Shown here piece by piece: positions 2,265 to 59,658 of a stretch of 64,000 bases of DNA (its first letter is position 1; each line of letters begins with the position of its first letter). The position numbers and the translations under genes are program-made. The notes under the pieces were generated by a model. That model had not been told where the DNA came from and made no database searches. It saw only the letters and a program-made list of their open reading frames with translations. This DNA comes from Anaerolineae bacterium (GTDB lineage Bacteria > Chloroflexota > Anaerolineae > JACIWR01), in contig JANLFX010000004.1 in the NCBI GenBank assembly GCA_024653325.1, positions 6,628-70,627 on the forward strand. The letters are read 5' to 3'.

Positions 2265-3461
2265 ATGCTAACCGGGCATAATTTTGTTTATTTTGGACCA
2301 GGGCCGTGGTTGGGTTTGTGGCGCAACCGACACCACCTAATGAGCAGGTTTGCTCATGGTAATCAGGTGCTGTATGTAGAGCCGCCGCCATATCTCCGAC
2401 CCGTTGTACATCAACTATCACAAGGTTGGGAGGGCTGGCAGAGCCTGCGAAATCCATGCCTGAGCCAGGTGCAGGATAACCTGTACGTTTACCACAGCCC
2501 AGCCTACGCCCCAGTTAGTGGACGTCCGCCTTTGAGCACGATAACCCATGTCATACGCCAGGCCTTGCTCTTGCGGGCGATGCAGCGTCTGGGGATGGAA
2601 CAACCCATCATCTGGCTCTCGCAGCCAAAAATGGGAAGCCTGATCGGTCAATTCCATGAGCGGTTGACAATCTATCACGTGGTGGATGAGTACACCGCCT
2701 ACCACGGCGTAACGACGGAAATGGCTTCCTGGATTCGTCTCCAGGAAAAACAACTCATGGCCCGGGTAGATTTGGTGATTGTGGTCTCATCCACACTGTG
2801 GGAAGCCAAACGGCCCTACAACCCACATACCTATTGGGTACCCAACGGTGTGGACCTGGTGGCTTTCAACCGTGCGTTGACCGAGAAAACTCCTCCAGCA
2901 GACCTGAATGCTATCCCGGAACCGCGGCTTGTCTATGCCGGGCTAATTGGTGTGCGACTCGATTTGACTTTGCTGCTCGCTGTCGCCCGGCGACATCCAG
3001 ACTGGTCACTTGTCTTTATAGGACAGGTGGATGACCGAGGATGTGAGGATGAACTGGCCAATTTGCAATCTTTGCCCAATGTTCACTTTTTGGGCCTGAA
3101 GCCAGCCTCCGTCGTGCCCCGTTATTTACTGGCTTGCCAGGTATGTCTGCTGCCCTATCGTCGGAGCGAGGAGTCTCGGCACATAGACCCGATTAAGCTG
3201 TACGAGGGACTGGCTTCTGGGAAACCCATTGTATCTACTCCTATCCCGGCGGTGTTACCTTACGGCGATCTGATCTGGCTGGCTTCTGACGATAGTGAAT
3301 TCGAAGCGGCGGTACAAGAAGCCCTGGCGGAACGGGATGATAGCAGAGCGGCACAACGGCGGTCTTTGGCGGCGGAACACACCTGGGAAAAGAGAGTAGA
3401 GCAGATTTCGACCCTGATCCAGTCCCGCCTTCGTGATAATAAGCGGGTTAAGCAGGGGTGA
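2265..3461 (+). CDS. GT-B fold glycosyltransferase (family 1/4 domain)
   Basis: C-terminal motif ...YEGLASGKPIVSTPIP... characteristic of Glycos_transf_1. N-terminal region resembles the GT4 N-domain. Confidence 0.7.
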   Translation: MLTGHNFVYFGPGPWLGLWRNRHHLMSRFAHGNQVLYVEPPPYLRPVVHQLSQGWEGWQSLRNPCLSQVQDNLYVYHSPAYAPVSGRPPLSTITHVIRQALLLRAMQRLGMEQPIIWLSQPKMGSLIGQFHERLTIYHVVDEYTAYHGVTTEMASWIRLQEKQLMARVDLVIVVSSTLWEAKRPYNPHTYWVPNGVDLVAFNRALTEKTPPADLNAIPEPRLVYAGLIGVRLDLTLLLAVARRHPDWSLVFIGQVDDRGCEDELANLQSLPNVHFLGLKPASVVPRYLLACQVCLLPYRRSEESRHIDPIKLYEGLASGKPIVSTPIPAVLPYGDLIWLASDDSEFEAAVQEALAERDDSRAAQRRSLAAEHTWEKRVEQISTLIQSRLRDNKRVKQG

Positions 3462-3468
3462 GAAACCG

Positions 3469-4704
3469 ATGACCAATCGCAGCTATCGTGTCCTTTACGT
3501 GGAAAATGCAAACAGTGTGGGAGGATCCATTATCAGCGTTTATCGGCTGGTGCAGCAGTTGAACCGCCAGCACTATGAGCCGATCATCCTGTTCCATCGT
3601 CCCAATGGCTACGAGCCTCGCTTTCGCGCCTTGGGCATCGAGGTTATTGTACTGGACGGTAAGGAAACACCCCAGGCTCAAGCCGGTAGTGGTCATTCCC
3701 GCGACATCGCGGCCTGGCTCGGTCACTACAGCTCAACTCTGGCTCACACTTACCGCAGGCTGAAATCCATCTACTTGTTGGGAAGCCAAACCCTACCGGA
3801 GTCACGACGCATCTATCGCATCATCAAGGACCGCAGGATTGACCTTGTACATCTGAACAATCGGCTGAGCAGCAACCGCAGCGGAGCCCTGGCCGCGCGA
3901 TGGGCTCGCACGCCCTGTCTATGCCATGTTCGTGACTTCGACCATCTGACCTGGTTTGATCGTTGGCTAGTAAAAAGGGTAGACCATTTTGCTTTTATGT
4001 CGCGTGCCCTGGAACAGAGTCTGAAGGCTGCCGAACCCTCCCTTCGCGGGTCGGTCGTTTACGATGGTCTGGAGCTGGATAGATTTTTGACTTCACAAGA
4101 CAAGGCCAACTTTCGTCAAGAATTGGGACTGAGCAATGATGATTTTGTGGTGGGGAATGTGGGCCGGTTGGTGCCCTGGAAGGGGCAGGAGGTCTTCCTG
4201 CGCGCGCTGGCCCGCGTCGCGCCGCAGATCCGTAACCTCAAAGCACTGATTGTGGGCGACCCGGACCCGCCGGCAGAGACCGCCTATTTGAAACATTTGC
4301 AATCTCTGGTTCAGGAACTGGGCCTGTCGGATATTGTACGGTTCACGGGGTTTTATTCGGACATTCCCCGCCTTATGGCTTCGCTGGATGTGCTGGTGCA
4401 CAGCTCCTCGTCGCCGGAGCCTTTCGGCATCGTGGTGATCGAGGGCATGGCGGCGGGCAAACCGGTGATTGCTACCAGAGCCGGTGGGGTGCTGGACATC
4501 ATCGAAGATGGTGATAACGGCCTGCTGGTGCCCGTTGGAGACGACCAGAGTATGGCCGAGGCGATTTTGACTCTGGCTCGCTGTCCTGATCTGGCGGCTC
4601 GGCTGGGGACGAATGCACGGCAACGCGTAACAGCTTGTTTCACAGTGACTCAGTACGTCCAGACGGTGCAAACTATCTACCAGAGTTTACTGGAGGAGAG
4701 ATAG
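3469..4704 (+). CDS. Glycosyltransferase family 4
   Basis: EPFGIVVIEGMAAGKPVIATRAGGVLDIIEDGDNGLLV, the classic GT4 EX7E-region motif. Start chosen at MTNRSYRVLYVENANSVGGS. Confidence 0.85.
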   Translation: MTNRSYRVLYVENANSVGGSIISVYRLVQQLNRQHYEPIILFHRPNGYEPRFRALGIEVIVLDGKETPQAQAGSGHSRDIAAWLGHYSSTLAHTYRRLKSIYLLGSQTLPESRRIYRIIKDRRIDLVHLNNRLSSNRSGALAARWARTPCLCHVRDFDHLTWFDRWLVKRVDHFAFMSRALEQSLKAAEPSLRGSVVYDGLELDRFLTSQDKANFRQELGLSNDDFVVGNVGRLVPWKGQEVFLRALARVAPQIRNLKALIVGDPDPPAETAYLKHLQSLVQELGLSDIVRFTGFYSDIPRLMASLDVLVHSSSSPEPFGIVVIEGMAAGKPVIATRAGGVLDIIEDGDNGLLVPVGDDQSMAEAILTLARCPDLAARLGTNARQRVTACFTVTQYVQTVQTIYQSLLEER

Positions 4705-24462: not shown

Positions 24463-24615
24463 TATCTCCCGCAGGTGCCTACGTGCCTGCGGGTAACTGC
24501 TGCTCAGCCGGGTAGTCGGTTTGCCACCTGCCCTCTCCGTCAGCGAACAGCCACCGAATAAACGAATGCCCGACCATTCGTTTATTCGTTCTACATTCGT
24601 TGACAGCAGACGGCA

Positions 24616-26967
24616 ATGCTTTTGACCAATCCGCGGTCGTTTTGCACAAATTCGGTTATCAGTTCAGTGACTGAAACAACCTGGCTCGATCCCCAACCAA
24701 CCTCTGTGCCACCAGCGCTGCATGAAGCCGTCGGCGGTCACCCCCTGGTAGCGGAAATGCTGGCCCGGCGGGGTGTCCTTACAGCAGCCCAGGCGCGCGC
24801 TTTCCTCGACTCTGATGCTTATTTGCCTGCTTCCCCCTATGAGCTGCCCGACCTTTCCCGCGCTGTAGAACGTATTGAGATAGCCGTTAACCGTGGTGAG
24901 CGGATATGCGTGTGGGGCGATTTCGACGTGGACGGCCAGACGGCGACGGCGGTGCTCGTCGAGGCCCTGCGTGCCCGAGGCGCGAATGTCATCTACCACA
25001 TTCCCAACCGCCGTGAGTCGCATGGCATCCATCGCCCGGTTTTGGAACGGATTATCGCTACCGGCACACGGCTGCTCGTCACCTGTGACACCGGCAGCAC
25101 TGCTCACGAGGCCATTGCCTACGCCAAGACCCAGGACGTAGACGTGATCGTCACCGATCACCACGACCTGCCGCCTGAGTTTCCCCCCGCCTATGCCCTG
25201 ATCAACCCCAAACGTCTGCCTGCCCACCATCCTCTACACGAGCTGCCTGGCGTGGGTACTGCTTACAAGTTGGTCGAGGCCTTGTACGCCAGCGGCGGAC
25301 AGCCATCGGAGGCCGCTCGTGCGCTGGACCTGGTGGCCCTGGGCGTGGTCGCCGACGTAGCCACGCTGACCGGTGACGTGCGCTATCTGCTGCAAAAGGG
25401 ACTGGAGGTGCTGCGTCACACCGAACGTCTGGGCCTGCAAGCCCTGTTCCAGTGCGCGGAATTGAACCCTGCCGGCCTGACGGAGGACCATATTGCTTTC
25501 ATCCTGGCTCCTCGCCTGAACGCCTTGGGCCGCCTGGCAGAGGCCACTATCGCCGTCGAGCTGTTCACTACAGATGATTTGACCCGCGCGCGAACCATCG
25601 CCAGCGAGACGGAGGGCTTGAACAGCCAACGCCAGTTGCTCACCAAACAAGTCCTCGACGCGGCCCTGGCGCAGATCGCGCGCGATTCTTCTTTGCGGGA
25701 ATCCAGCGTCCTGGTGCTGACTCATCCGACGTGGTCAGCGGGTGTCATAGGCATCGTCGCCGGTCGGCTGGCAGAGCGGTTTGGCAAACCCGCTGTGCTG
25801 ATCAGCGCGCCGCCGGGGGAACTGGCCCGCGGCTCGGCCCGCTCTGTCCCCGGCTGTGACATCCACGCCGCCATCGCTGCCCAGGCCCCCCTGCTTCACC
25901 GTTTCGGCGGTCACCCTATGGCCGCCGGATTCTCCATTGAGGCGGAGCGCATCCCCGAATTCCGCGCTGCCCTGGCCCGCACCATCGAGGCCATGACCGG
26001 TGGCACGCTGACCCGCCAACCGTTGCAGATAGACGCTTATTTATCGCTATCCAACCTCTCCCTCGATTTGGTGGCTCAACTGAACCGCTTGGCTCCCTTC
26101 GGGCCAGGCAATCCACCAGTGTGCCTGGCCACGCGTAACCTGCGCATCATCAACGCGACAACCATCGGGCGCACCGACGAACATCGCAAGCTGCTGGTCG
26201 AGGACGAGGCCGGCACAACCCAGACTGTGCTCTGGTGGCAAGGAGCGGATTGGCCTTTGCCAGAGGGGCCCTTTGACCTGGCCTACACCGCCCGGGCCAG
26301 CGATTATCAGGGACAGCCAGAGCTCGAACTGGAGTGGCTGGCCGCGCGGGAGGCAGAACGGCCATCCGTTGTTGTGCAGGGGGCTGCACCAGCCATCGAG
26401 ATCATAGATTATCGGCGCGCCTCGGAACCAGAGGCTCTGCTCCGCCAGTTGCTTGCCAGTGAAGGCATTCAAGTGTGGGCTGAAGGAAAAGTGCCCCACG
26501 GTGTGCCAGGCCTGAGCCGCGATGTCCTGTCGGCGGGGGAGACATTGGTGATCTGGAGCGTGCCGCCCGGCCCAGATGAACTGCAGGCTGTGATAAAGCG
26601 AGTTTCGCCACAGCGGGTGATCCTGTTTGCCACAAATCCAGGGATGGATGAGCCGATGACGTTTCTGCAGCGACTGGCCGGCTTGGTGCGGCATAGCCTG
26701 CGAGTCCGTGAAGGACAGACGAGCTTATCGGCGCTGGCTGCCGCCACCGCTCAACGCGAGACAACGGTGCAGGCTGGCCTTCAATGGCTGGCGGCAAAAG
26801 GGCAGGTACGCATTATCGCCAACACAGGCCATCAGGTGACTTTGGCCGCCGGCGACGGTCAGCGTTCCGCGGAGGTGGAACACTGGCTGCATCGCGTCGT
26901 TGCTCTACTGGAGGAAACGGCGGCCTATCGTGCCTACTTCGCCCGGGCGGACACACCGATCTTGTAG
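24616..26967 (+). CDS. recJ: Single-stranded-DNA-specific exonuclease RecJ (DHH/DHHA1)
   Basis: …ICVWGDFDVDGQTATAVL…, …VIVTDHHD…, plus the GHPMAAGF DHHA1 motif. True start may be downstream of 24616. Confidence 0.9.
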   Translation: MLLTNPRSFCTNSVISSVTETTWLDPQPTSVPPALHEAVGGHPLVAEMLARRGVLTAAQARAFLDSDAYLPASPYELPDLSRAVERIEIAVNRGERICVWGDFDVDGQTATAVLVEALRARGANVIYHIPNRRESHGIHRPVLERIIATGTRLLVTCDTGSTAHEAIAYAKTQDVDVIVTDHHDLPPEFPPAYALINPKRLPAHHPLHELPGVGTAYKLVEALYASGGQPSEAARALDLVALGVVADVATLTGDVRYLLQKGLEVLRHTERLGLQALFQCAELNPAGLTEDHIAFILAPRLNALGRLAEATIAVELFTTDDLTRARTIASETEGLNSQRQLLTKQVLDAALAQIARDSSLRESSVLVLTHPTWSAGVIGIVAGRLAERFGKPAVLISAPPGELARGSARSVPGCDIHAAIAAQAPLLHRFGGHPMAAGFSIEAERIPEFRAALARTIEAMTGGTLTRQPLQIDAYLSLSNLSLDLVAQLNRLAPFGPGNPPVCLATRNLRIINATTIGRTDEHRKLLVEDEAGTTQTVLWWQGADWPLPEGPFDLAYTARASDYQGQPELELEWLAAREAERPSVVVQGAAPAIEIIDYRRASEPEALLRQLLASEGIQVWAEGKVPHGVPGLSRDVLSAGETLVIWSVPPGPDELQAVIKRVSPQRVILFATNPGMDEPMTFLQRLAGLVRHSLRVREGQTSLSALAAATAQRETTVQAGLQWLAAKGQVRIIANTGHQVTLAAGDGQRSAEVEHWLHRVVALLEETAAYRAYFARADTPIL

Positions 26968-35983: not shown

Positions 35984-37993
<2,010 letters not shown>

Positions 37994-38095
37994 CTCCCAA
38001 AAGCCCTGAGGCAGTGTCCCTTGGGCGGGTCGTATCGCCCGCCCAAGGGCACTTTTTCAAAGCGACTGGATGAACAGGCATATCGAGAAACAGTG

Positions 38096-50426: not shown

Positions 50427-50448
50427 AAAAAGGCCCATCTTGCGATGG
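50427..50448 (-). terminator. Rho-independent terminator (AGGCCCATC-ttgcg-GATGGGCCT followed on the minus strand by a U-tract) downstream of the LuxR-family gene
   Basis: A6 run on the + strand immediately 5' of the hairpin, which is a T-run on the minus strand. Confidence 0.65.
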
Positions 50449-50482
50449 GCCTGGGAGCCTATCTCTCCCCTCACCCTCTTCG

Positions 50483-50522
50483 CCCCCTCTCCTCTCTCCG
50501 CAGGCGGAGAGGGGAGAGGGGG
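50483..50522. repeat. Long polypyrimidine/polypurine inverted repeat hairpin (ccccctctcctctctccgc-agg-cggagaggggagaggggg), 17/18 bp stem
   Basis: Direct reading. Lies ~120-150 nt upstream of the receiver gene start. Confidence 0.7.
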
Positions 50523-50541
50523 TTGGGGGAGTGGGGTGAGG

Positions 50542-51219
50542 TCATTCCACCTTCACCAACCCCTTGCGAATGGCGTAGAGCATGGCCTGGGTGCGGTCGT
50601 AGACGTGGAGCTTGGAGAAGATGTTGTTGATGTGGTTCTTCACCGTCTTCTCGCTGATGCAGAGCTCCTGGGCGATTTCCTTGTTGGGGCGGCCTTCGGC
50701 GATGAGGGTGAGCACCTCCATCTCACGAGGGGTGAGTTCGTTAACGAGGGGGGGCTGCTTGCCAGGCAGGGCGGCGAACTGCCGCAGCACCTTCTGGGCG
50801 ATGGTGGGTCCCAGGAGCGATTCGCCGTGGGCGACGGCGCGGATGGCCCGCAGCATGGTCTCTGGGTCGGCGTCCTTGAGGATGTAGCCCCGGCCGCCAG
50901 CCTGCAGGCCGCGGAAGACGAACTCATCGTTCTCATACATGGTGACGAAGATGATGCCGATGTGGGGCATCTCCCGGCGGAGGGTGCGGGTGGCCTCGAT
51001 GCCGTCCATGGCTTGCCCTGAGCCAGCCGAAGGGTCGGGCATCCTGATGTCCTTGAGGATGACGTCGGGCATCAGGTCTCGGGCCTGCTCCAGCGCCTCG
51101 CGACCTGTGGCGGCCTCGCCCACCACCTGCATGTCCTCTTCCGCCTCCAGCATCTTGCGCATGCCCTTGCGGAAGAGGGTGTGATCATCAGCGATGAGGA
51201 TGCGGATCTTGTCCGTCAT
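50542..51219 (-). CDS. Two-component response regulator, NarL/FixJ (LuxR HTH) family
   Basis: MTDKIRILIADDH… receiver plus C-terminal LTPREMEVLTLIAEGRPNKEIAQELCISEKTVKNH LuxR HTH. Confidence 0.85.
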   Translation of the reverse strand: MTDKIRILIADDHTLFRKGMRKMLEAEEDMQVVGEAATGREALEQARDLMPDVILKDIRMPDPSAGSGQAMDGIEATRTLRREMPHIGIIFVTMYENDEFVFRGLQAGGRGYILKDADPETMLRAIRAVAHGESLLGPTIAQKVLRQFAALPGKQPPLVNELTPREMEVLTLIAEGRPNKEIAQELCISEKTVKNHINNIFSKLHVYDRTQAMLYAIRKGLVKVE

Positions 51220-51241
51220 GGCTACCCCCTCGCAAACCAAA

Positions 51242-51276
51242 CCCTTGCGAAGGTTTTAAACCTTCGCAAGGGTTTG
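51242..51276. repeat. REP-like palindrome (cccttgcgaaggttttaaaccttcgcaaggg), left flank of RAYT
   Basis: About 13-15 bp perfect stem. Its twin lies at 51866-51898. Confidence 0.85.
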
Positions 51277-51279
51277 GGC

Positions 51280-51843
51280 TTATGTGTCCAGATAGTACGC
51301 TTCCAATTCCCGCTCCAGCTTCTCACTGAGTGATGCGGTGATAAAGGCTTCGTAGTCACCAGGCGTTGGGAAGTACTGCTGGACGAAATCGCGATCCACC
51401 AGCGTGCCACTGCGCTTCCCTACCCATTCCAGGTAGTTGCTGTAAGGCCAATCTCCTGGGTGTGCTACCAGGCCGGCTTCAACTGGATTCAAGTGGATGT
51501 AGCGACACACCTGGATGACATAAGCCTCGGTATCCACCAGCACGCTCTTGGGCCGGCCTTCAAACAACGTGCCACTGCGTTCTTGCTGCTTATTGAAGGC
51601 CTGCGTGTAACTATTGAAGAGCCGCTGGAGGAATGGCGAGATTGCGCCGTCTTCCTCCGGCCTGAAGAGGAAATGGTAGTGATTCGGCATCAAGCAGTAC
51701 GCAATCACGGTCAGCGGGTACTCGCACAGAAACTTCTTGGCTCGCCGGAGCAGAAAGAGGTAGTTGCCATCGTTGGCGAAGATGCGCTCACGGTTGCATC
51801 CGCGGTTGTATACGTGGTAGTAGTAGCCGGCCAGGTACTTCAT
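51280..51843 (-). mobile_element. REP-associated tyrosine transposase (RAYT) / IS200-IS605-family Y1 transposase-like
   Basis: YHVYNRG N-terminus, HuH motif (CLMPNHYHFLF) and …IHLNPVEAGLV…DWPYSNY… catalytic-Tyr region. Flanked by identical palindromes. Confidence 0.75.
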
Positions 51844-51863
51844 GTTTCCTCATACACTACCCT

Positions 51864-54263
51864 CTACCCTTGCGAAGGTTCTAAACCTTCGCAAGGGTAA
51901 AGCGGGATTAGGGCTCTCACCGTCGTCCCTCGCCCCGGCGCGCTTTCGATCTCGAACTGCCCGCCGAGTTGCTCCACCCGTTCCCTCATGCTCCACAGCC
52001 CCAGATGCGTCCCCGACCGGGGTGCCTCGGGATCGAATCCTCGCCCGTCGTCGGCGATGCGCAAGGTCACATGTCGCTCATCCTGCTGCAGGGTCACCTC
52101 AACTCGCTGCGCCTGGGCATGCCGGACCACGTTGTTCAGCCCCTCCTGAGCGATCCGAAACAGGGCTGTCTCCACCGGTGCTGGGAGGTGTCGGCCTTCG
52201 TCCGCCGTGAACTCGATGACCAACCCGTGCTCTTGCTGGCAGTGAGCCAGGTAGTCTCGCAAGGCCGGCACCAGCCCCAGCTCATCCAGCGCCGCCGGCC
52301 GCAGGTCGTACATCAGGCGGCGAATGTCCCGAATGCTGGCCTGAGCCTGCTCAGCCAGTTCTTCGATCTCCCCGGCGACCGGGTGGTGGTCTTGTTCCAG
52401 GAGCTTGCGGGCGGTGCGTAGGCGTAGGTTCAGGCTGGCCAGGGCAGGCCCCAGCCCGTCATGAAGCTCGCGGGCGATGCGCCCCCGCTCCTCCTCCTGG
52501 GCCGCTGTCACCAGGGCCAACTGCTGACGCAGGATGGCCATCCGCTCTTCGTGTAATCGCGCGTTCTCCAGGGCCAGGGCCGCGCTGTGAGCCAGGGTGG
52601 TCAGCAGTTCCACGTCCTCCTGGGTGTAGAGATCGCCGGAGCGCTTCTCTCCCAGGGTCAGGACGCCTACCAACTGCTCGCCGGTCAGAAGAGGCACGGC
52701 CAGCGTCGCCCCGATCCTGCGCAGATCCTCGGCCTGAGGGGAGCGGTCGTCAGGAAGCAACAGCAAAGGACGTTGCACCCGGGTCAGCCAGGTGACCAGA
52801 CTCCAGACTTCCGAAGTCCCCGAGACTTCGGAAGTCTCGCCGTCGTCCAGCAGCCAAATCCTGGCCCCCTGGGCGCCCAAGGTCTCGCTCACTGTGTCCA
52901 GCACTAGGTGTACTACCTCCTCTTTGTCGCGCAGGGTGCTCAGGTCCCGGCTGAAAGCGGTTAGCGCCTGGCGCACCTCGTACTCTCGCCGGAAGAAGGC
53001 GCGGTCCACGAAGGTCTGGATTCGATTGCGAGCTGGCTGGAAGAGGACGGCGATGAGCAGCGCCGGGGCCAGGGCAGCCAGGAAGGATGGCTGGCCGCTC
53101 AGTCCCTGGAAGAGGTAGCCGGTGAGCAGGGAGAGGAGCAGGAAGACAGTGGTGAGGGTGACCGTCAGCAACGAGTAGACCAACCCCTTACGCACCACCA
53201 CCCGGGTGTCTAAGAGCTGGTAGCGCAGGACGGCGTAGCCAACGGAGAGGGGGTAGAGGGTGGCGATGATGCCACCCCAGTGCATGCTGGCCGGGGGTGG
53301 AAAATGGAGGACGGCAGGACCCCACAGGAAGACAATCCAGCCTCCCAGGCCCAGGCTGATGCCCACCAGGAGCACCACGGCTTGCTGCCGGATCAGCGGC
53401 GAAGCCTTCTTCCGCAGGGCGATCTGGAGCAAGGGAACCGTCTTGTTGACTACCGAGCCCAACGCGAGCACCACGAAATGGCCCCAGGTGCCTGACCAGA
53501 GGTACAGGCGCCACAGGGAGGGGGTGTCCAGGTGGGAGGCCAGGAAAAAGAGCGTGGGGAAATAGACCGTGAAGGCGGCAGCCAGGGCCACGAAGGCCGG
53601 GATCAGAAGCCAGCGGGCCAGGAACTCCTTGCGCGCCCGGTCGGCGGGGAAGCTCCAGAAGAAGATCCAGCCAGCCACGGCGGCGATCGCCGTCCAGGGA
53701 TGGACCAGATACGCCGTCCACTTCTGCTGGCTGAGGTAACAATCCCACACCGCCCCGACGATGCTCGCCCAGAGCAGAAGGTAAAGGAGGAGATAGCGAT
53801 TAAGCCGACCGTTGGGGTTGCGCGCGTAGACGAAGATGCCCACGGCCAGGGAGAAGAGGGCAAAAAGAAGTCCCCCGGGGATAAAGCGCCACAGGATGTC
53901 GGCAGTGAACTCCATGGTGGGCACAGCGATCTGGAGCCTCTGGTCGCCCCGCTCCACAGTGTAGACCACGATGCCGCCGATGCCTGCCTCCCTCACCAGG
54001 CGGCGTATCTCCCGCCAGTGCTGCCCGTTCACCGCCACAATGCGATCCCAGGGGCGCAGGCCGGCCTGCCAGCCGGTAAAGTCCTGAGGGGTGAAGCCGC
54101 TGACGATGCGGTCTGGGGTGTAGAAGAAGCCGGGGAAGGGATGACCGATCTGGCTGGCGACGGAATAGAGAGAAGCGGCCCAGATCAGGGCAGCCGCCAG
54201 AATCACGCCCGCCACCACCCAGCGGGGGTGTACACTAGGAGAAGTGGCAAAGACACGCCTCAT
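51864..54263 (-). CDS. Sensor histidine kinase (N-terminal PDZ-like region, polytopic membrane domain, GAF, HisKA_3 + HATPase_c; NarX/LiaS class)
   Basis: HisKA_3 H-box (ELHDGLGPALASL). G-boxes (…GRGTTVRALIPL). GAF-like segment. Multiple TM helices. Start at MRRVFATS with GAGGAG RBS. Confidence 0.8.
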   Translation of the reverse strand: MRRVFATSPSVHPRWVVAGVILAAALIWAASLYSVASQIGHPFPGFFYTPDRIVSGFTPQDFTGWQAGLRPWDRIVAVNGQHWREIRRLVREAGIGGIVVYTVERGDQRLQIAVPTMEFTADILWRFIPGGLLFALFSLAVGIFVYARNPNGRLNRYLLLYLLLWASIVGAVWDCYLSQQKWTAYLVHPWTAIAAVAGWIFFWSFPADRARKEFLARWLLIPAFVALAAAFTVYFPTLFFLASHLDTPSLWRLYLWSGTWGHFVVLALGSVVNKTVPLLQIALRKKASPLIRQQAVVLLVGISLGLGGWIVFLWGPAVLHFPPPASMHWGGIIATLYPLSVGYAVLRYQLLDTRVVVRKGLVYSLLTVTLTTVFLLLSLLTGYLFQGLSGQPSFLAALAPALLIAVLFQPARNRIQTFVDRAFFRREYEVRQALTAFSRDLSTLRDKEEVVHLVLDTVSETLGAQGARIWLLDDGETSEVSGTSEVWSLVTWLTRVQRPLLLLPDDRSPQAEDLRRIGATLAVPLLTGEQLVGVLTLGEKRSGDLYTQEDVELLTTLAHSAALALENARLHEERMAILRQQLALVTAAQEEERGRIARELHDGLGPALASLNLRLRTARKLLEQDHHPVAGEIEELAEQAQASIRDIRRLMYDLRPAALDELGLVPALRDYLAHCQQEHGLVIEFTADEGRHLPAPVETALFRIAQEGLNNVVRHAQAQRVEVTLQQDERHVTLRIADDGRGFDPEAPRSGTHLGLWSMRERVEQLGGQFEIESAPGRGTTVRALIPLYPCEGLEPSQG
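51866..51898. repeat. REP-like palindrome (cccttgcgaaggttctaaaccttcgcaaggg), right flank of RAYT; also encodes the last 12 codons and stop of the histidine kinase
   Basis: Minus-strand reading ctt tac cct tgc gaa ggt tta gaa cct tcg caa ggg tag = LYPCEGLEPSQG*. Confidence 0.85.
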
Positions 54264-54633
54264 ATCTAATCTCCTCTCGACCGTTGAGGAATGGGAAACC
54301 TGAGCCACCACTAGGCGCGCTTATCTGAGAAACCTATAATTATTTTACAACAGATACAATCAGAAATCAATCTTGACAGACCTGGAGGCGCATGTTAGTT
54401 TGGAGGTTGATTCTGCCACCCGCAGTCTGGGATAGAGTTGGTGCGTTACTTCATGCTCACCGACATGCGCCAGGAGCCCCGCAGAGAGTGTGCCGGGCTC
54501 CTGGCCTCTTCTCGTACAAGTTAAAGTGGTGGGCCAAGCCGATCGTCACCGTGGCATAGGCTCAGGGTTCAACCCAGTAAGGGCGTCGGTGTGGCCGTGG
54601 GCGGCATTGGCGTCAATGCCCTGCTGTAGGCCG

Positions 54634-55020
54634 TCATTTTTTCTTGGCGGCATAGTATTCGGCCATAGCTGTGTAGCGAGCGGCATCGGCATCAATACCC
54701 CGCTGTACGCTGGTTTCTTCCTTGGCGGCATAGAATGCGCCCATGGCGGTGTACCGGGCGGCGTCGGCGTCAATACCTCGTTGTATGCTCTCGTTCTTGG
54801 CGGCATAGTATTCGGCCATAGCTGTGTAGCGGGCAGCATCGGCGTCAATACTGCGCTGTAGGCTGTCCTCATTTTCGGTAACAATGGCGGCTGGCTGGGT
54901 TTCTGCTGTTGGAATGGTGCTCACAAGAATACCCACGATCAATCCAACGGCCAAGATGGTCATGGCAACCACGACTGGCTTGAGCCATTGCTTGATAACG
55001 AGTGAATTTGCTGACATCAT
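54634..55020 (-). CDS. Small membrane-anchored protein with three tandem 22-aa repeats (QRGIDADAARYTAMAEYYAAK)
   Basis: GGAGG RBS 6 nt upstream of the ATG. N-terminal TM helix. The 66-bp DNA repeats 1 and 3 are near-identical. Confidence 0.6.
   Translation of the reverse strand: MMSANSLVIKQWLKPVVVAMTILAVGLIVGILVSTIPTAETQPAAIVTENEDSLQRSIDADAARYTAMAEYYAAKNESIQRGIDADAARYTAMGAFYAAKEETSVQRGIDADAARYTAMAEYYAAKKK
54640..54870. repeat. Tandem 66-69 bp coding repeats (3 units) with a 4th degenerate out-of-frame unit at ~54560-54633
   Basis: cttggcggcatagtattcggccatagctgtgtagcg(a/g)gc(g/a)gcatcggc(a/g)tcaata recurs at 54646 and 54784. Confidence 0.8.
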
Positions 55021-58854: not shown

Positions 58855-59658
58855 GTGATCGTAAAAGAGATAAACTGCAAGTCCATCCTGACCAAATCGG
58901 GCATTGAGGGCGTTGACTACGCCCTCAATCCCTATGTGGGTTGTGCACACGGCTGCGTGTACTGTTACGCCAGTTTTATGAAGCGCTTCACCGGTCACCC
59001 GGAGGAATGGGGCACCTTCGTGGACGTCAAAGTCAACGCGGCAGAGGTGCTGGCCCGCCAGATGCGACGGGCGAAGCCGGGCAATATCTCCTCCGGCACG
59101 GTGACCGACCCCTATCAACCGCTGGAGGCACGGTACGAGATCACCCGCGCCTGCCTGCAGGTACTCGCGGACCACGATTTTCCTGTCTCCATCCTCACCA
59201 AATCCGACCTGGTACTGCGCGACCTCGACCTCCTCCGCCGCCTCAAGAATGTGGAAGTGGGTTTTACCATCACCACTCTGGACGAAGAAGTGCAGCGATT
59301 TTTTGAGCCAGGCTCCTCCCCTGCCTCGGCACGCCTGGCGGCCCTGGCAGAACTGGCAAAGGCGGGGATCAAAACCTGGGCCTTCTGCGGCCCGTTCTTG
59401 CCCTTCCTCTCGGACGGTGAAGAACAGATAGATGCCCTCTTTGCAGCACTGGCGAGGGCTGGTATTTCGTACATCATCGTGGACAGCATGAAGCTCAGCG
59501 GCGCAATTGGGGGAAAGGTCAGGAGAGCGTTGGAAAAACACTACCCCGACCTGGTGGAGGGATACCGCCACATCGCCGCCAACCGCCAGCCCTATCACGG
59601 GGCGCTGATGGCCAGGGCGCGAATGCTTGCTGAGAAGCACGGCCTGACAATAGAGTAG
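58855..59658 (+). CDS. Radical SAM protein, SplB-like ('DNA repair photolyase' COG1533 family)
   Basis: …LNPYVGCAHGCVYCYA… (CxxxCxxC). Family-typical N-terminus KEINCKSILTKS. Confidence 0.65.
   Translation: MIVKEINCKSILTKSGIEGVDYALNPYVGCAHGCVYCYASFMKRFTGHPEEWGTFVDVKVNAAEVLARQMRRAKPGNISSGTVTDPYQPLEARYEITRACLQVLADHDFPVSILTKSDLVLRDLDLLRRLKNVEVGFTITTLDEEVQRFFEPGSSPASARLAALAELAKAGIKTWAFCGPFLPFLSDGEEQIDALFAALARAGISYIIVDSMKLSGAIGGKVRRALEKHYPDLVEGYRHIAANRQPYHGALMARARMLAEKHGLTIE

Follow-up and report, generated by a model that had tools for sequence, protein, structure and literature searches.

A probable REP/RAYT cassette with compact, symmetric hairpins in a kinase-regulator spacer of an Anaerolineae-like member of the Chloroflexota

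A 64-kb stretch of DNA from an Anaerolineae bacterium (64,000 nucleotides; hereafter the window) carries on its minus strand a gene for a tyrosine transposase of the kind associated with repetitive extragenic palindromes (REPs), that is, a REP-associated tyrosine transposase (RAYT). The gene, an open reading frame (ORF) of 187 amino acids (aa) at 51280-51843 that was recognized by ORF calling and domain search, lies between a sensor histidine kinase gene and a response regulator gene, and is bracketed by two perfect hairpin repeats. We consider it highly probable that the segment spanning the RAYT and both repeats (51237-51899) is a "REPtron", a RAYT with its cognate hairpins, which was inserted as a unit in the kinase-regulator spacer of an Anaerolineae-like member of the Chloroflexota. 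It is a genuine REP/RAYT cassette, ordinary as a gene and an under-described variant of the system. What makes it notable is the architecture of the repeat, the spread of that repeat across phyla, and the probable subclass of the RAYT; mere presence in the Chloroflexota does not.

The RAYT protein and its cognate repeats

Identification of ORF 51280-51843 as a RAYT-type Y1 transposase, proposed in an initial annotation made from the sequence alone, was confirmed by profile and structure searches. The protein carries YHVYNRG, PNHYHFLF (the HUH motif), and RYIHLNPV; by motif, the HUH residues are assigned to H55-Y-H57 and the catalytic tyrosine to Y115 in YIHLNP, and both H55-Y-H57 and Y115-IHLNP are invariant across 43 homologues. 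Pfam Y1_Tnp was matched with an E-value of 5.9e-10, and the only significant sequence match in the PDB was 4er8, the TnpA-REP of E. coli. An AlphaFold2 model (pLDDT 94.3) likewise had 4er8_A as its top Foldseek match (E 9.3e-10, TM 0.64/0.72), with the TnpA proteins of IS608 and ISDra2 at E-values of about 1e-4. Judged by its sequence and predicted fold, the protein is a class-2 Y1/HUH enzyme nearest to E. coli TnpA-REP.

The class-2 signature, Y---NP, is present, and the motifs NHYH, FE (FQ in homologues), and YIHLNP fit the set described for subclass 2.1, NH[YF]H / FQ / Y[IV]HLNP (Quentin et al. 2018, PMC6006769). Two longer relatives (P0341 and P0379) combine Y1_Tnp with Bac_DnaA_C, the architecture of that subclass; the window protein is short (about 185 aa), its C-terminus being only a 50-aa helical tail, and a Pfam search of it found no helix-turn-helix (HTH) family match. 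On the strength of its motifs and longer relatives, the RAYT may be placed in subclass 2.1, whose TnpA-REP proteins are equivalent to the Group 1 RAYTs and to most of the "TIRYT" proteins (PMC6006769; PMC5581495; Di Nocera et al. 2013, PMC3733652). The homologue family is large: 7,897 of 8,000 scored candidates had E-values of at most 1e-5, many of them named RayT by the Joint Genome Institute (JGI), and a library of representatives at 50% identity yielded 32,676, 14,537, and 171 clusters at E-values of at most 1e-3, 1e-10, and 1e-30, respectively; the exact protein is on record from one contig only. With thousands of homologues, and with REPs and RAYTs already reported in Chloroflexi or Caldilineae (PMC3733652, PMC5581495), the earlier view that a copy in this phylum is remarkable in itself does not hold.

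The two near-identical perfect palindromes that had been noticed on either side of the RAYT were recovered at 51865-51899 and 51237-51277. The upstream (right) repeat, a hairpin with a 16-bp stem and a 3-nt loop, reads TACCCTTGCGAAGGTT-TAG-AACCTTCGCAAGGGTA in the orientation of the gene (two inverted 15-nt units and a 3-nt spacer) and lies 22 nt before the RAYT ATG. The downstream (left) repeat, with a stem of 19-20 bp, reads CCAAACCCTTGCGAAGGTTT-T-AAACCTTCGCAAGGGTTTGG, begins 3 nt past the RAYT stop codon, and ends 18 nt before the ATG of the regulator; on the mRNA strand UUUGGUUUG comes after it, counting its stem as 16 bp, and the terminator-like site at this repeat was flagged on the plus strand only. 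The pattern CCCTTGCGAAGGTTYTAAACCTTCGCAAGGG has exactly two occurrences in the 64-kb window, 51242-51272 and 51867-51897, against 0 expected from shuffled sequences. The folded RNAs are very stable (downstream, -34.6 kcal/mol, z -6.3; upstream, -34.7 kcal/mol, z -7.2), and the upstream 33-mer folds as DNA with -17.6 kcal/mol.

Copies from other genomes (see below) define a 33-nt consensus, A-N-CCTTGCGAAGG-TT-NNN-AA-CCTTCGCAAGG-N'-T. Among the 94 copies with a 7-nt centre, the edges are sharp, A standing at -2 in 88 and T at +2 in 89; positions -1 and +1 are complementary in 70 despite their variation, and -3 and +3 in 23, which is the chance level. We had considered that the stems of solitary copies might extend, with covariation, into their flanks; complementarity past -2/+2 is at chance. 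Similarly, a GTAG tag, suggested by GGGTAGAGGGTAG after the upstream copy in the window, is not general, as GTAG stands at only 3 of the 94 copies, and the stem is perfect and symmetric. The 15-nt arms are themselves self-complementary: over all repeat types found beside RAYTs, 170 of 240 positions pair, compared with 65 +/- 7 in shuffles. The repeat is, then, a discrete 33-nt element of two inverted, self-complementary 15-nt units. At three loci (L214-L216) the 15-nt units are single, lie 13-77 nt apart, and alternate in orientation around the gene. This suggests that the 15-mer is the basic unit and that the 33-mer is two such units placed head to head, a REPIN-like arrangement (discussed later) in very compact form.

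The strongest evidence that the RAYT protein and the repeat work together is their co-variation. An unbiased, protein-based metagenome scan gave 80 loci with RAYT homologues of 31-70% identity. Where both flanks were present, a matched hairpin pair was found at 9 of 13 loci at 50% identity or above, 5 of 17 at 40-50%, and 6 of 41 below 40%. These hairpins nearly always have a 15-bp stem and a 3-nt loop; the upstream member of a pair lies 12-60 nt from the ATG, the downstream member 0-20 nt from the stop codon. On a neighbour-joining tree of the homologue loci the hairpin sequence tracks the RAYT clade (AACCTTsCGAAGGTT-like in clade A, AGGTG.....CACCT in clade B, and AGAAAC...GTTTCT in clade C). 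Not every RAYT homologue has repeats: around those of L124 and L126 we found no perfect hairpin, apart from one G/C homopolymer palindrome. On either flank, the RAYT homologues of L137, L141, and L165 carry two distinct types of hairpin, which recalls the arrays of bacterial interspersed mosaic elements (BIMEs).

Insertion of the cassette and dispersal of the repeat

The kinase gene (51864-54263 or 54311, minus strand; ORF call and Pfam) encodes a transmembrane region followed by GAF, HisKA_3, and HATPase_c domains, and the regulator gene (50542-51219, minus strand; also by ORF call and Pfam) a NarL/LuxR-type protein with Response_reg and GerE domains. The RAYT gene lies on the same strand as these two, and the arrangement, which the initial annotation called convergent, is co-directional. 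The same annotation held that the RAYT separates the kinase from its cognate regulator by about 650 bp, and the measured distance from the kinase stop codon to the regulator is 644 nt. Five orthologous loci lack the RAYT. In three cases the distance is far shorter, the regulator following the kinase after 86 nt in L130 (86% kinase identity), 15 nt in L131/L132 (80%), and 25 nt in L133 (78%). In L218 (81% kinase identity) the spacer, again without a RAYT, holds a toxin-antitoxin-like HEPN/nucleotidyltransferase pair (3192-4066), and it would appear that insertions land repeatedly between kinase and regulator. After the regulator of L218 (4727-4757) there is also a palindrome of the clade-B type, AGGTGCGACGC...GCGTCGCACCT. 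Conversely, the RAYT genes closest to that of the window (93, 90, and 85% aa identity; 91% nucleotide identity over the gene only) are not beside a kinase or regulator. Together, the cassette-less orthologous spacers and the RAYT relatives in unrelated contexts indicate that the cassette was gained in the source lineage, in agreement with the insertion first proposed.

As had been recognized, the kinase frame is read through the upstream palindrome: the protein ends ...RALIPL-YPCEGLEPSQG*, its final 11 codons and stop codon lying inside the repeat. On the opposite strand, the ORF at 51460-51900 does end ...LYPCEGSKPSQG, as first described. Kinase orthologues of 70-86% identity are conserved to ...GTTV+A.IPL and then diverge into unrelated tails of 0-40 residues, and none of them has a YPCEG C-terminus. 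The initial annotation went further, suggesting that the native 3' end of the kinase gene had been replaced. The tail is indeed repeat-derived; what was replaced, on this comparison, is only a non-conserved tail. As the orthologues are conserved up to ...IPL, the kinase domain is intact, with the HATPase_c match reaching residue 805 of 815.

Beyond the window, we scanned one genome per species with the pattern CCTTGCGAAGG-N3-13-CCTTCGCAAGG, which returned at least 120 stretches. They come from about 75 assemblies, which represent at least 10 phyla, and two of the assemblies have at least 9 copies each. The phyla include Chloroflexota, Bacteroidota, Ignavibacteriota, KSB1, Poribacteria, Planctomycetota, Cloacimonadota, Lentisphaerota, Gemmatimonadota, and Calditrichota, among others. 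Among the matches listed, 5 of 128 copies adjoin a RAYT (in L016, in L022 from the Ignavibacteria, at 43% identity, and in L111), a ratio of solitary to RAYT-linked copies of about 25:1. The same 33-mer is thus scattered, mostly without a RAYT, over many genomes and phyla. Phage carriage was not apparent, as 2.9 million viral contigs held one palindrome and no RAYT.

About 89 of the 128 listed copies are intergenic, a count that includes 30 copies overlapped by the 5' end of a mechanically called ORF; we rejected these calls as artefacts of a TTG "start" within the repeat. Twelve extend over the 3' end of an ORF, which is also the situation in the kinase gene, the stop codon often lying in a TTTGAAA or TTTTAAA centre, and another 27 are contained in ORFs of 100 aa or more, the 33 nt of the repeat amounting to 11 codons. 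For six of the ORFs with an internal copy a real gene was confirmed; they encode MetH, a NACHT NTPase, a T9SS-tail protein, a DUF2298 protein, a hybrid kinase-regulator-AraC protein, and a peptidase S10. REPs within genes had been known earlier (PMC3733652).

Several individual copies deserve mention. In L034 (4444-4472) a 33-nt repeat lies in-frame in the activation domain of the B12-dependent methionine synthase; in-frame repeats were also seen in L050, L062, L076, L101, and L102, one of them in the linker of the hybrid kinase-regulator-AraC protein. An inverted-repeat element of about 80 nt (tgagcgattgc ... gcaatcgctca) that has the 33-mer as its core occurs in seven loci of the Cytophagia CAYLWO01 (L003, L066, L070, L078, L083, L090, and L107) and, in another phylum, in KSB1 (L041 and L095). 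Paired solitary copies in L051, L060, L115, and L068 enclosed no RAYT or informative cargo except for serS, which lies between two copies in L068 (1549-2909; Anaerolineales). In a metagenomic locus, L126 (2523-4558), serS adjoins a RAYT homologue.

Known systems, mechanism, and competing explanations

A close known counterpart is E. coli TnpA-REP (RAYT, YafM; Group 2, subclass 2.2; 4er8), with which the window protein shares the HUH motif and a single catalytic tyrosine in Y---NP and whose gene, with the REPs and BIMEs, is likewise bracketed by cognate hairpins that are also dispersed in the genome. The two proteins are, however, only 22% identical, with DHLH/WE/YIHYNP in E. coli and NHYH/FE/YIHLNP in the window, and the window repeats differ from E. 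coli REPs in being perfect and symmetric, in lacking GTAG, in consisting of two self-complementary 15-nt units, and in belonging to a type found across many phyla rather than in one lineage. The GTAG- or CGTC-tagged REPs (Di Nocera et al. 2013) have a tagged foot and an imperfect, oriented stem, neither of which is present here. REPINs (Bertels and Rainey 2011) are pairs of inverted REPs that fold as one long hairpin and are mobilized by a RAYT. The repeat described here resembles them in that the apparent mobile unit is an inverted doublet folding as one long hairpin, and in that both singlets and doublets occur; but it measures 33 nt with a 3-nt spacer rather than about 100 nt, it is associated with a different RAYT group, and an identical sequence recurs across many phyla, in contrast to the description of REPINs as lineage-specific and vertically inherited.

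To subclass 2.1/Group 1 the cassette is linked by its motif set, by a wide and patchy distribution over phyla, and by the Bac_DnaA_C extension of the closest longer relatives, although the window protein, at about 185 aa, lacks that HTH extension and is short of the subclass median of 238. For this subclass the literature reports either no REPs, none having been found near subclass 2.1 genes (PMC6006769), or terminal inverted repeats with GGGG[AT][CG]A[CG]; abundant repeats have been tied only to RAYT Groups 2 and 3 (Bertels et al. 2017, PMC5581495). RAYTs of the close clade examined here, by contrast, are as a rule flanked by a matched hairpin pair. In the literature searched, which may miss some papers, we found no cognate repeats for a RAYT like that of subclass 2.1, no nested and untagged 33-nt architecture, no single repeat common to many phyla, and no cassette that differs in location between close relatives; a full-text search with the core repeat sequences returned primers and short hairpin RNAs only. 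Our findings run against the published statements that subclass 2.1/Group 1 is REP-less and that inheritance is vertical.

How such a cassette might operate is suggested by the models for IS200/IS605 elements and for E. coli TnpA-REP (PMC3479197, PMC6006769). The RAYT would bind the hairpin formed in single-stranded DNA and would cut and rejoin it by means of Y115 and the HUH metal site, so as to spread repeat units, doublets, and occasionally the whole cassette. It would be transcribed by read-through from the kinase promoter, and the two hairpins of about -35 kcal/mol could modulate expression of both the RAYT and the regulator by stabilizing or attenuating the mRNA; because UUUGGUUUG follows it, the downstream hairpin may attenuate read-through into the regulator. 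The repeat-encoded tail of the kinase would be a neutral by-product.

Three other explanations were weighed. The RAYT could be a domesticated, immobile host gene, its hairpins now serving only as regulatory structures in RNA or DNA (terminators or mRNA stabilizers) that no longer proliferate, and the operon arrangement having arisen by ordinary recombination. This would accord with the current view of Group 1, 4, and 5 RAYTs as single-copy, co-opted genes, with the stability of the hairpins as RNA, and with the many solitary copies at gene ends. We nevertheless think it unlikely, because (i) presence or absence of the cassette differs among closely related operons, (ii) repeat units have been gained or lost by 18-nt steps inside the kinase gene, (iii) the repeat has sharp 33-nt edges, unrelated flanks, and a distribution over many phyla, and (iv) copies in-frame in conserved genes such as metH would not be favoured as terminators. 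Quite improbable, too, is an autonomous insertion sequence (IS) of the IS200/IS605 type, in which the hairpins would be the left and right ends of an element whose transposase moves nothing but itself, the solitary palindromes being unrelated or relics of excision. The whole cassette does behave as an insertion relative to orthologous loci, near-identical RAYT genes occur in different contexts, and Group 1 RAYTs have been described as the most IS-like (PMC5581495). With the IS200/IS605 family (IS608, ISDra2) the cassette has in common the fold and catalytic chemistry of TnpA, a hairpin-flanked gene, and the absence of a visible target duplication. Yet the tyrosine motif is the class-2 YIHLNP and not the class-1 Y[IV]ENQ of IS200, TnpA-REP is the better fold match by some 5 orders of magnitude in E-value, the same symmetric palindrome stands at both ends in place of distinct left and right ends, solitary copies are abundant (the ratio given above for the matches listed), and the exact protein comes from a single contig.

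The nested symmetry of the palindrome invites a further interpretation, as a double-stranded operator in which four AACCTT/AAGGTT half-sites, spaced at 9 nt, are recognized by a regulator in dimeric or tetrameric form (possibly by way of the C-terminal helical domain of the RAYT) for autoregulation and not for mobilization. The self-complementarity of the 15-nt arms (again 170/240 vs 65 +/- 7) is what such an operator would show, and relatives of the same subclass have DnaA-like HTH domains; but no HTH family match was detected in the window protein, an operator is not expected to be scattered through coding and intergenic sites of unrelated genes across phyla, and the compensatory change at -1/+1 preserves the long hairpin. 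We give this interpretation very little credence.

Insertion of a RAYT together with its own hairpins is the explanation we prefer, and a number of observations tell against it. Catalysis by RAYTs of this clade is extrapolated from the paradigm enzymes. The equivalog model REP_Tyr_transpos of NCBIfam (NF047646) scored 75.5 bits, below its cut-off of 80, a near miss expected for a subclass remote from the E. coli type. The repeat has no general GTAG/CGTC tag, which the E. coli enzyme requires for cleavage, and just two copies lie within the window. A foreign origin argued from base composition is weak, as the GC content of the cassette (0.54) is near the window mean (0.57), the kinase and regulator genes standing at 0.65 and 0.63. 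Finally, the cassette could have arrived through the action of its own RAYT or by recombination, both routes being compatible with what was found.

Taken jointly, the results would fit a broader proposal, which we put forward tentatively and short of thinking it probable: that a short (~185 aa) branch of subclass 2.1/Group 1 RAYTs, regarded as REP-less and domesticated, runs an undescribed, cross-phylum repeat system. Its 15-nt self-complementary module would spread as singlets and as 33-nt head-to-head doublets in 18-nt (6-codon) steps, the units therefore being tolerated in-frame inside genes; it would diversify together with the RAYT and travel between phyla with a still-mobile RAYT cassette. 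If true, this would contradict both the confinement of REP/REPIN-RAYT systems to Groups 2 and 3 and their strict vertical inheritance. REP/RAYT biology has been worked out almost wholly in the Gammaproteobacteria, with RAYTs of those two groups, and the prevailing model is that the other groups are without repeats and immobile. What was found at this locus and in its relatives points to cognate repeats in a very common RAYT branch (the 171 clusters counted above at the strictest threshold, and many thousands of sequences), and these repeats differ from known ones in being very compact, lacking a GTAG guide, crossing phyla, and residing frequently in-frame in proteins. With such a system, recognition of a fully symmetric hairpin by a Y1 enzyme can be tested simply, and the system accounts for the recurrent 11-residue "PCEG...PSQG" or "TSEV...TSEV" inserts and the odd C-terminal tails in proteins predicted from uncultured bacteria. 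The operon itself has changed only modestly. Its kinase domain has stayed intact, and its regulator is now preceded by a foreign gene of 564 nt and two strong hairpins; the polar or regulatory effects raised in the initial annotation are possible.

The operon, a second repeat family, and other features of the window

Kinase, RAYT, and regulator may form one transcription unit. A sigma-70-like promoter match (54342-54370, minus strand) lies upstream of the kinase, no match to that consensus was found between kinase and regulator, and an intrinsic-terminator-like hairpin with a T-run (50431-50452, minus strand), at which the unit would end, follows the regulator; promoter and terminator are both consensus matches, and their positions fit a single unit. 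Between the regulator stop codon and this hairpin lies a long CT-rich/GA-rich inverted repeat (50465-50540; RNA -53 kcal/mol, z -3.7).

The kinase gene also contains a member of a second repeat family. At 52805-52837, in-frame within the GAF domain, stands the doublet AGACTTCCGAAGTC-CCCGA-GACTTCGGAAGTCT, whose 15-nt unit is AGACTTCSGAAGTCT; translated, it gives ETSEVSGTSEV in a loop of that domain. The kinase orthologue of 86% identity has one unit (GETSEVW), that of 80% has none, and that of L218 has the doublet, so that copy number shifts by 18-nt steps (0, 1, or 2 units). The doublet was also found twice in L082 and beside a distant RAYT in L193; the 64-kb window contains no cognate RAYT for this family.

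Three other hairpins in the window (24555-24588, 38018-38049, and 58903-58929) were considered as possible members of the flanking repeat family and proved unrelated to it. One of these, at 38018-38049 (perfect, 12-bp stem), comes after ORF 35984-37993 and is followed by a T-run, which makes it terminator-like, while that at 24555-24588 (perfect, 14-bp stem) lies just upstream of ORF 24616-26967. Upstream of the kinase, a 128-aa ORF (54634-55020, minus strand), for which the JGI gene call has no Pfam match on record, contains a motif of about 20 residues (QRGIDADAARYTAM.E/FYAAK) three times in tandem.

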